This document shows, piece by piece, positions 34,933-36,066 of a stretch of DNA of 45,844 nt (the stretch's first letter is position 1; each line of letters opens with the position of its first letter). The stretch covers positions 1 through 45,844 of the forward strand of contig JBGGMJ010000203.1 of the NCBI GenBank assembly GCA_041288095.1, written 5' to 3'. The notes beneath the pieces are model-generated. The model ran no database searches and had not been told where the DNA came from. It saw only the letters and a list, made by a program, of their open reading frames with translations. Both the position numbers and the translations under genes were made by a program. The stretch comes from Myxococcota bacterium. GTDB taxonomy: Bacteria; Myxococcota; XYA12-FULL-58-9; JALHOP01.

Positions 34933-34963
34933 CGTTCAGCCGAATCAGATGTTCGGCTGAACG
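34933..34963. terminator. Perfect 12-bp hairpin between convergent genes (possible bidirectional terminator)
   Basis: CGTTCAGCCGAA-N7-TTCGGCTGAACG; the loop contains the stop codon of the 34945..36066 gene; no U-tract. Confidence 0.5.
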
Positions 34964-36066
34964 TAAACATTCACCTTGGGGCGAGCGGCATCCGTGAGCT
35001 CGACGCCGACACCGTGCAGCGGGTAACACTGCAATACGGGCGCCTGCGCATCGAGCGTCGCGAATAGCTCGCGCACGGGCTCGCCCGGGTAGCCCCAGCG
35101 CTCGATCATGCCCACGACCTGCTCGCCATGCTCGGCCCGCACCGCCTTGCCCTGGAAGAAGGTCGTGACCTTGAGCGTCGTGGGTCCGCTACCGCGGATG
35201 GCGAACGCCACCTCGCAATCACTCGACGACGCGTCCGATTCGGTGGCCTCGATGAGCTCTCTCGCGTGCTCGAGGCGGCCCTCGGCGATGCCACGCCGCA
35301 CCAAGTCTTCCATGAAGCCGACGGCTTTGGTGCGCGGCGCGTGGACGTACATCTTCACGCGGCCATCTTCATCGGCGAGATCGACGCCGAGACCCGTGAA
35401 CCGCGTGTCGCCGTTGGTCTGGTAGAGCGCGTCGTAGATGCCGGCGTTGCGCTCGGCGTCATTCAAGCCGCAGAGCTCGAGCACCTTCATCACCTTGTCA
35501 CGATGGGGCACCGACGTGTCGAGCCGCGTGTTGAAGTAGAGCTTGAGCTCCACGTCGTCGCCGCGTGGAACGACACCGACGAGCAGACCTTGAGCCAGCG
35601 CCGAAAATTCGGTGAGGCGATCGAGATTAGGAAAGACGGTACGAAAGATGTCGGCGGTCAGCTCGGCCTGCGCGTCGCCACCACCGGACTCGAGGTGGAA
35701 CTGCAGCGTGCCGCGCAACAACATGGTGAGGGCTTCGACGAGCGTGCTGCTGGTGCCGCCCTGCGTGAGATAGGCGAAGCCGCGCGGGCCGTCGCCGGCG
35801 AGCGTCAACACCATCTCCATGATCGCTGGGAGGCCAGACATGATCTGCTGCGCGATCCCGACGACTGGATCGAGCGGTCTGTCGCTCGCGCCACCGATGC
35901 GTTTGCCGAGCCGCTCGCGCACGAGCTTGTAGCGTTCGACCTCGCGCTCGGCATCGCCGCCGCACATCCGCGATAGCGCACGCACGGCCGCCTCGGCGCG
36001 CGCGTCGTATGTCGACAAGGTGTGTTTGGGCATCGCCTGCTCGATCAGGCGGGCGATCTGGCTCAC
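34945..36066 (-). CDS. Hypothetical protein resembling ABBA-fold (DMATS/LynF-like) prenyltransferases
   Basis: Repeated beta-hairpins LVGVV..-ELKLYFN, FTGLGVDL-RVKMYVH, EVAFAI-TLKVTTF, HGVGVEL-KVNVYVQP separated by helix pairs. GTG start overlaps the upstream TGA. The CDS is secure, the family call is tentative. Confidence 0.55.
   Translation of the reverse strand: MSQIARLIEQAMPKHTLSTYDARAEAAVRALSRMCGGDAEREVERYKLVRERLGKRIGGASDRPLDPVVGIAQQIMSGLPAIMEMVLTLAGDGPRGFAYLTQGGTSSTLVEALTMLLRGTLQFHLESGGGDAQAELTADIFRTVFPNLDRLTEFSALAQGLLVGVVPRGDDVELKLYFNTRLDTSVPHRDKVMKVLELCGLNDAERNAGIYDALYQTNGDTRFTGLGVDLADEDGRVKMYVHAPRTKAVGFMEDLVRRGIAEGRLEHARELIEATESDASSSDCEVAFAIRGSGPTTLKVTTFFQGKAVRAEHGEQVVGMIERWGYPGEPVRELFATLDAQAPVLQCYPLHGVGVELTDAARPKVNVYVQPNI

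Follow-up and report, generated by a model that had tools for sequence, protein, structure and literature searches.

The 373-codon gene and its upstream neighbor

The stretch of DNA considered here, called the window in what follows, comprises 45,844 nucleotides (nt) of contig JBGGMJ010000203.1 (assembly GCA_041288095.1) from a Myxococcota bacterium, an uncultured organism with a myxobacterium-like genome. Our subject is a minus-strand gene at 34945..36066 that codes for a protein of 373 amino acids (aa). Judged by its predicted fold, its structural matches, and its family profile, the product is a divergent protein of the dimethylallyltryptophan synthase (DMATS) superfamily, with a prenyltransferase (PT) barrel, and is probably a soluble aromatic prenyltransferase. 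It is encoded by the last gene of a minus-strand operon, directly behind a gene for a mostly disordered protein of 704 aa that is rich in Pro, Thr, Gly, and Gln (36063..38177, minus strand). From its translation, alignment, and structure prediction, this neighbor is a candidate secreted partner or substrate. The same operon carries genes for a chaperone and for predicted translocators of a type III secretion system (T3SS).

The start of the 373-aa gene and the stop of the 704-aa gene overlap (36063..36066, minus strand). The 704-aa open reading frame (ORF) finishes with TCC AAG TGA, and the GTG start codon of the 373-aa ORF lies within the shared GTGA, read from 36066 to 36063, just as the initial annotation of this DNA had described it. 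This GTG start is supported by the homologues, which open with M-S-Q-I at the aligned position in an alignment (A1) of the query and 19 relatives drawn from a set of 5.8 billion proteins. The ORF (34945-36066, minus strand) gives a stop-free translation of 373 residues, and its GC content is 0.84 at third codon positions versus 0.44 at second positions, a pattern that the neighboring genes show as well. The codon-position signal, together with 20 homologues in the protein set and 61 representatives in a second library, identifies it as a real gene. A scan for promoters and terminators around the end of the gene returned nothing that exceeded shuffled sequences.

Fold, sequence family, and conserved residues

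An AlphaFold2 model built on the 20-sequence alignment A1 was confident overall (predicted local distance difference test [pLDDT] score of 87.9; predicted template modeling score of 0.88). It contains ten strands (residues 83-90, 93-101, 161-168, 171-179, 222-229, 236-244, 280-291, 297-304, 350-356, and 364-369) arranged as five hairpins, each followed by paired helices, which together make up a five-unit barrel. Residues 1-8 are modeled with low confidence, and the N terminus is variable among homologues, while residues 20-54 are well conserved and well folded and form part of a helical cap. According to PMC7973389, five alpha-beta-beta-alpha (ABBA) units surround a central site in DMATS enzymes; the donor site is conserved, and four tyrosines form a shield that stabilizes the carbocation. 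The ten strands, five hairpins, and paired helices of the model correspond to the fold described there.

A Foldseek search of the PDB gave at least 500 matches overall, 114 of them with E values of 0.001 or less; the matches listed, which we consider here, number 34, and all 34 are DMATS-type prenyltransferases. The best was the 6-DMATS of Micromonospora olivasterospora (6zrx; E value, 2.5e-11; template modeling [TM] scores, 0.67/0.71), followed among the matches listed by FunA, PriB, MpnD, CymD, IptA, TleC, AtaPT, FgaPT2, AnaPT, and DMATS1. TM scores to solved DMATS structures ranged from 0.64 to 0.71 across ~370 alignment columns. We therefore hold with high confidence that the 373-aa protein is a PT barrel of the DMATS superfamily. 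An ABBA barrel had been predicted in the initial annotation, and the model and the structural search bear this out, with no different fold emerging.

The family itself is small. It numbers 20 proteins in the 5.8-billion-protein set, query counted, and 61 representatives at an E value of 0.001 or less in a library of 1.84 billion representatives (53 at 1e-10 or less and 31 at 1e-30 or less). None of these 20 proteins or 61 representatives carries an informative protein name. For profile searches we assembled a second alignment (A2) of 52 sequences, made up of the query, 45 of the 61 representatives, and 6 more relatives from the 5.8-billion-protein set; the other 16 representatives, short fragments (78-247 aa), were not included. 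No longer, fused forms of the prenyltransferase were seen among 8000 candidates scored, which is weak evidence.

Homology to DMATS proteins became detectable as the profile widened. The single 373-aa sequence found no match in the PDB by phmmer, and the A1 profile reached an E value of 0.13 at best. With the A2 profile the similarity was significant, the matches including 5-DMATS (6zrz; E value, 4.5e-7), 6-DMATS (6zrx; E value, 8.4e-6), and PriB (E value, 0.0091). In these alignments LKvYFNTR pairs with VKVYLNP and RaKLYvr with RAKVYLR, so that K175/Y177/N179 and R236/K238/Y240 fall on the K.Y.N and R.K.Y strands of the bacterial enzymes; G.DL likewise pairs with the.DL of DMATS and, on the last strand, N.Y with T.Y. 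The nearest clusters in the ESM Atlas were actinomycete Trp_DMAT proteins, with a score of 0.94. Searched against the 5.8-billion-protein set, the A2 profile returned 18 family members and no named DMATS.

Curated models gave weaker results. Pfam PF11991 (Trp_DMAT) scored 17.5 bits on the 373-aa protein against a cut-off of 25, NCBIfam TIGR03429 (arom_pren_DMATS) scored 21.7 bits against a cut-off of 163.85, and Trp_DMAT matched only 12 of the 52 family members at an E value of 0.01 or less, with a best value of 2.1e-4. Besides Trp_DMAT, no Pfam family matched the 373-aa protein or its 52-sequence family at this threshold. Since both scores fall short of their cut-offs, the protein lies outside the curated families, and by sequence comparison it is a member of a separate, uncurated, and very divergent clade of the DMATS superfamily. 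The initial annotation had proposed kinship to ABBA prenyltransferases in general; this holds for the DMATS type, which takes in prenyltransferases of indole, histidine, and tyrosine, and not for the LynF/TruF/PagF group, to which no similarity appeared in the Pfam scans or among the 34 matches listed by Foldseek.

Conservation across the 52 sequences of A2 follows an i, i+2 period on every strand, which is what residues lining a barrel lumen would show. The most conserved positions are E84 on strand 1 (46/52); K175 (47/52), Y177 (49/52), and N179 (48/52) on strand 4, followed by conserved T180 and R181; and D229 on strand 5 (49/52), where F223, G225, and G227 are also conserved. Strand 6 contributes R236 (50/52), K238 (48/52), and Y240 (51/52); strand 7, E285 (52/52); strand 8, K299 (49/52), T301 (45/52), and F303 (47/52); strand 9, a conserved G354 and E356 (47/52); and strand 10, K364 (44/52), N366 (47/52), and Y368 (48/52). 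In the A2 profile, it is the Lys, Arg, and Tyr residues on strands 4, 6, and 10 that align with solved DMATS structures. Four hairpin repeats ending in K.Y-like motifs had been noted at the outset. All four motifs are present, namely, KLYF (175-178), KMYV (238-241), KVTT (299-302), and NVYV (366-369), on strands 4, 6, 8, and 10, respectively, but the model has five hairpins rather than four. The first hairpin (residues 83-101) bears E84 and F97/Y99/T101.

Several of these residues can be matched to positions of known function. In DMATS enzymes, basic residues on the even-numbered strands bind the prenyl donor's diphosphate, and the 373-aa protein has candidates for this role: K175 and R236/K238 align with their counterparts in 5-DMATS, 6-DMATS, and PriB, and K299 and K364 occupy equivalent positions of strands 8 and 10 in the model and the alignment. 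Y177, Y240, and Y368 align with tyrosines of solved DMATS structures and are candidates for the tyrosine shield, while the fourth shield position, assigned to strand 8 by strand analogy only, is a threonine (T301, 45/52) for which Y99 on strand 2 (31/52) and F303 may compensate. E84 lies on strand 1 (83-90), where the catalytic glutamate of DMATS enzymes such as FgaPT2 hydrogen-bonds the acceptor; the match between the two is inferred from the strand alone. E285, T301, E356, and N366 could form an acceptor site specific to this family, as we read the conservation pattern. From these sequence features, we consider it probable that the 373-aa protein is catalytically active.

The translocator cassette and its relatives

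The genes ahead of the 373-aa gene make up a recognizable T3SS translocator operon. They comprise a class II chaperone, major translocators, and a minor translocator, all on the minus strand in one predicted unit with intergenic gaps of 37-252 nt. The chaperone (379 aa; 42681..43820) matches TIGR02552 LcrH_SycD above its cut-off (130.6 versus 104.8 bits; E value, 3e-38) through a SycD/LcrH domain at residues 245-376, and TPR families of Pfam match it as well. It is unusually long, with an extra N-terminal TPR domain (~50-195) ahead of the SycD/LcrH domain, and its homologue in one related locus (L006) reaches 545 aa. The major translocator (491 aa; 41081..42556) belongs to the SseC family (PF04888, 42.4 bits against a cut-off of 30.2; E value, 8.5e-11). 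A second SseC-like translocator of 501 aa (39323..40828) appears to be its paralogue, from a weak match to PF04888 (E value, 0.0023) and BLASTP similarity to the 491-aa family. A 347-aa protein (38242..39285) is the SseD-like minor translocator candidate (NF052420 translocon_SseD; E value, 2.6e-5; 24.4 bits, below the cut-off of 130). No injectisome apparatus genes were found in the window.

At the far end of the cassette, beyond the 373-aa gene, stands a plus-strand gene for a sigma factor of the extracytoplasmic function (ECF) type (33343..34050; TIGR02937, 71.8 bits against a cut-off of 42.9). Between the two genes lie a pair of antisense ORFs, 34189-34893 on the minus strand (234 aa) and 34219-34920 on the plus strand (233 aa), which overlap almost fully, so that at most one of them can be a gene. 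Conservation favors the plus-strand ORF (73-76% identity versus 60-71%), which also has slightly higher third-position GC and whose product starts with an N-terminal Pro-Arg/Pro-Glu repeat; neither ORF has a homologue in the more distant loci L004 and L006. We considered the minus-strand ORF as an extra operon member and rejected it in favor of its better-conserved opposite, although this call is uncertain. By the same reasoning, the 373-aa gene is probably the last of the operon and convergent with its neighbor.

We then asked how far this arrangement is kept in other genomes. Pattern matching across a genome collection yielded 49 matches, and 6 of them (loci L001-L006) encode a relative of the 373-aa protein. 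L005 is a gene fragment at a contig end and was not counted in the context comparison, so that gene context was read for 5 family members, compared with 61 representatives in the family. In all five loci with upstream sequence, the homologue of the 373-aa gene lies directly 3' of a homologue of the 704-aa gene (700-790 aa). The junction is a GTGA overlap in L001 and L002 and a 1-nt TGATG overlap in L004; in L006 and L003 the two genes stand 3 and 49 nt apart, respectively. All four loci with 10-kb flanks keep the order chaperone, SseC-like, SseD-like, large protein, prenyltransferase, and ECF sigma factor, with the SseD-like gene retained in each (L001, L002, L004, and L006). The block persists in L004 and L006, where the 373-aa homologues are only 41% and 37% identical to the query and the genes beyond the block are unrelated to those of the window. 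The sigma factor gene adjoins the 373-aa gene homologue throughout (98, 97, 76, and 79% identity in L001, L002, L004, and L006); in L006 it lies on the other strand, and the prenyltransferase gene is still joined to that of the large protein. Co-occurrence with the cassette in related genomes, raised in the initial annotation as a check on its proposal, is thus seen in every locus that could be read, and no unlinked homologue was met there.

Taken together, the gene order and the junctions place the 373-aa gene, on the evidence of sequence, as the terminal, translationally coupled gene of a T3SS translocator operon in Myxococcota-like bacteria, and it is likely that the protein is functionally tied to the translocon module. 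The six loci come from metagenome-assembled genomes (MAGs) labeled Myxococcota, Deltaproteobacteria, or Bdellovibrionales, save for L005, a 1.6-kb contig binned as Rubrivivax. Two family members carry taxon labels outside Myxococcota: L005 (a 1653-nt contig binned as Rubrivivax sp.; 86% identity) and protein P0011 ("Clostridia bacterium" according to one source; 49% identity). Both labels are probably binning errors on short contigs rather than signs of gene transfer.

The 704-aa neighbor has three conserved helical modules, at residues ~27-150, 430-524, and 644-703. Its AlphaFold2 model has a mean pLDDT of 40.6, too low for a fold search, with helices at 27-94, 448-524, and 644-703. The six aligned homologues share invariant N430, G432-434, D442, G443, F446, N447, W448, F451, and F455, and, at the C terminus, Q688, G689, N692, and Q693. 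The central motif, N.GGG..T..S.DG..FNW..F, runs into the long helix, and the N-terminal module and the C-terminal helix are conserved as well. The W/F-rich stretch that had been pointed out in this protein, SWDGMHFNWEAFFVKFMF, is indeed there, at residues 440-457; W448 within it is invariant, and the Trp of SWDG is replaced by Phe in L004 and L006. Searches of Pfam and NCBIfam and a profile search of the PDB with the 704-aa protein gave nothing except a poly-Q artefact match to TBP; Pfam on its N- and C-terminal parts gave nothing meaningful at an E value of 1 or less, and the ESM Atlas held no usable match. The gene also contains in-frame tandem repeats at 36285-36356 and 37254-37296, with periods of 18 and 15 nt, that encode GGQQRP-type and PT-rich low-complexity tracts, and the lengths of these tracts vary among homologues. 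A complex prediction for the 373-aa protein (52-row alignment) and residues 420-704 of the neighbor (6-row alignment) gave ipSAE values of 0.02/0.01 against a mark of 0.32, which, with a poorly folded partner and no controls, says nothing either way.

Other features of the region were recorded alongside these. At the head of the cassette, a conserved 393-aa protein (43888..45069, minus strand) has homologues in the same place in L001 (91%), L002 (86%), and L004 (50%), with none in L006, and matched nothing in Pfam, NCBIfam, or further family searches. Beyond it, an ORF at 45339-45842 (minus strand) is open at the window end. Both lie upstream of the chaperone gene, belong to no known family, and have homologues in L001, L002, and L004; their products are possible additional substrates of secretion, a tip protein for example. 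The SseC-like paralogues of 501 and 491 aa stand in tandem in the window, L001, and L002, and are represented by one gene in L004 (683 aa) and L006 (409 aa). At 76-98% identity, the sigma factor far exceeds the cassette genes in conservation, and its gene is inverted in L006. It may regulate the cassette or just be a conserved anchor gene. The rest of the window holds ccm genes, an ABC peptide importer, TolB/TonB, a Ser/Thr kinase, ArsA-like ATPases, and a DUF1588/DUF1552 pair. At 26191-29236 (minus strand), a pair of neighboring genes for ArsA/ParA-like ATPases precedes a 318-aa ORF that has no family, and this trio recurs downstream in L001 and L002, judged by ORF size and position only.

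Proposed role, rival readings, and comparison with known systems

The conserved lumen residues suggest how the protein might work. A prenyl diphosphate would be bound in the barrel lumen by K175, R236, K238, K299, and K364, the allylic cation would be shielded by Y177, Y240, Y368, and perhaps Y99 and F303, and the prenyl group would be passed to an aromatic acceptor positioned by E84. For the acceptor we propose a secreted, translocon-associated protein, which would be prenylated on an aromatic residue while still in the cytoplasm, ahead of export. The first candidate is the 704-aa protein, largely disordered and co-translated with the enzyme, and within it the invariant W448, at the junction of the Gly-rich flexible segment and the long helix; alternatively, the acceptor could be a residue of an SseC/SseD-like translocator. 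On the 704-aa protein, the prenyl group could serve as a hydrophobic handle that favors insertion into the target membrane. We prefer a translocon-associated acceptor because translation of the 373-aa protein is coupled to that of a disordered, secretion-type protein and its gene accompanies those of translocators.

Several points weigh against this proposal. Its basis for the acceptor is gene order alone, as it is for the two roles offered in the initial annotation, lipidation of the upstream protein or service as its chaperone, and prenylation of a translocon-associated protein before export is accordingly put forward as a tentative reading. The enzymes named among the Foldseek matches listed have free amino acids or other small molecules as acceptors, and DMATS-type enzymes are known with small acceptors only, none of them being known to modify a protein. 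A prenyl diphosphate synthase gene is absent from the window and the related loci, as are biosynthetic genes of other kinds. The Pfam and NCBIfam scores below cut-off, the few family members matched by Trp_DMAT, and the threonine at the fourth shield position belong on the same side. Finally, all linked loci come from one phylum, so part of the synteny could be inherited rather than selected.

The small acceptors of known enzymes suggest another reading, in which the 373-aa protein is an active DMATS-type enzyme whose acceptor is a small molecule, for example an indole derivative or an aromatic amino acid in free form, and whose product is a metabolite or signal made together with the translocon, with no secretion protein modified. 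The closest solved structures among the matches listed indeed prenylate free tryptophan and histidine, the residues aligned with the donor site are retained, and DMATS enzymes are known only with small acceptors. However, no nonribosomal peptide synthetase, cyclodipeptide synthase, or oxidase genes lie beside it in the window, L004, or L006, and a start/stop coupling to a secreted-type disordered protein that holds down to 37% identity would be unusual for a stand-alone metabolic enzyme. We regard this reading as possible but doubtful.

Operons of the SPI-1 (Salmonella pathogenicity island 1) type carry effectors at their distal end, which is where the 373-aa gene stands in the translocator operon. 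The protein might therefore itself be a T3SS effector, injected into prey or host, where it would prenylate a target metabolite or protein with the prenyl diphosphates of the target cell; if true, host- or prey-directed enzymes would gain a new type. The low model confidence of residues 1-8 and the variable N terminus are compatible with this idea, and the family-specific lumen residues E285 (52/52), E356 (47/52), and T301 (45/52) suggest an unusual acceptor. On the other hand, no secretion signal or dedicated effector chaperone was seen, residues 20-54 are conserved and folded into the helical cap, and the tight junction with the 704-aa gene suggests that the two products are partners in the cytoplasm. 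An injected enzyme seems unlikely to us.

It is more unlikely still that the barrel is non-catalytic and acts as a binding partner or chaperone for the disordered 704-aa protein, or for a hydrophobic segment of it, before secretion. Translational coupling and conserved adjacency would suit such a role, as would scores under the Pfam and NCBIfam cut-offs and the apparent replacement of one tyrosine-shield position. Yet the inward-facing Lys, Arg, and Tyr residues aligned with the DMATS donor site are the best conserved over 52 sequences, which would be unexpected in a pure binder, and the cassette already has a class II chaperone. Least probable of all is that the adjacency means nothing, a prenyltransferase gene having become fixed between the translocator operon and the ECF sigma gene in an ancestor and then been inherited: all loci are Myxococcota-type MAGs, and the sigma factor (76-98%) is more conserved than the cassette and could be a fixed anchor, but in 4 of 5 loci the junction is tight, with an overlap or a gap of 3 nt, although identity falls to 37-41%, the prenyltransferase gene stays joined to that of the large protein in L006 where the sigma gene has switched strand, and the outer flanks are not conserved.

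DMATS-type prenyltransferases are natural-product enzymes, found mainly in fungi and actinomycetes, and it is with the bacterial indole prenyltransferases of this type (6-DMATS, 6zrx/6zry; 5-DMATS, 6zrz/6zs0; PriB, 5jxm/5inj; IptA; CymD; MpnD; and TleC) that the 373-aa protein has most in common. They are of the same size (~350-375 aa) and share its ten-strand, five-unit PT barrel (TM scores, 0.64-0.71), profile homology (E values, 4.5e-7 to 0.0091), the aligned K.Y.N and R.K.Y strands, and the Asp on strand 5. In contrast, identity over the structural alignment is just 12-18%, the 373-aa protein falls below the Pfam and NCBIfam cut-offs, and its family has invariant residues of its own (NTR after strand 4, E285, T301, E356, and N366). 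The settings differ as well, a Myxococcota T3SS translocator operon here and Actinomycetota natural-product clusters there. FunA, a free-histidine prenyltransferase (9iia), and the fungal enzymes FgaPT2 (3i4x), AtaPT, and AnaPT also have a PT barrel with a central active site in common with the 373-aa protein, but they are longer (~400-440 aa), give lower target-normalized TM scores (0.52-0.63), and use free amino acids or small aromatics as acceptors; by strand analogy, the strand-8 shield position is Thr in the 373-aa protein. The sequences point to a DMATS-superfamily clade that is new, met in a setting that is likewise new; the finding would become categorically new if protein prenylation holds. 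Met so far only in Myxococcota-type genomes and locked into a secretion-system operon, the family extends the DMATS fold in sequence space as well as in biological setting.

Polypeptide acceptors are not beyond the reach of prenyltransferases, as peptide prenyltransferases modify Trp, Tyr, or other residues in ribosomal peptides. The cyanobactin LynF/PagF group prenylates residues within such peptides. ComQ, PalQ, and the lanthipeptide prenyltransferases are described as acting on short peptides of the class made by ribosomes and modified after translation (RiPP); ComQ and PalQ are presumably not PT-barrel enzymes. The 373-aa protein differs from LynF/PagF, ComQ, and PalQ in that no similarity to them appears in Pfam or among the Foldseek matches listed, nor did the lanthipeptide enzymes match it; moreover, all of these act on RiPP peptides, which are short, rather than on a secretion protein of 700 aa. 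If a secreted protein is modified here, the barrel enzyme would prenylate polypeptides and could be of use to protein engineers.

In the literature outside subscription journals, we found no report of an aromatic, DMATS, or ABBA prenyltransferase in a T3SS translocon operon or in myxobacteria, and no paper on T3SS translocons and Myxococcota whose title or abstract concerns this gene. This agrees with the initial annotation, which knew of no translocon operon with such an enzyme; a separate translocon-lipidation system already in print is that of IacP and SipB (PMC5279801). As that paper presents it, SipB is acylated through IacP, an acyl carrier protein encoded in the Salmonella SPI-1 operon, and the acylation promotes its insertion into membranes and the formation of pores. 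Of the systems compared, this offers the nearest functional parallel to the role proposed here, as both would place a lipid-modification function inside a translocator operon. The modification of SipB is a reported one, whereas the role of the 373-aa protein is proposed from gene linkage, and the proteins and chemistry are unrelated, an acyl carrier protein and Cys acylation in one phylum as against a PT barrel and presumed aromatic prenylation in another. Should a translocon protein prove to be prenylated, this would be a second, chemically unrelated route of translocon lipidation and the first DMATS-superfamily enzyme to act on a full-length protein, and prenylation would join the Cys acylation of SipB as a means of making translocon components membrane-active.

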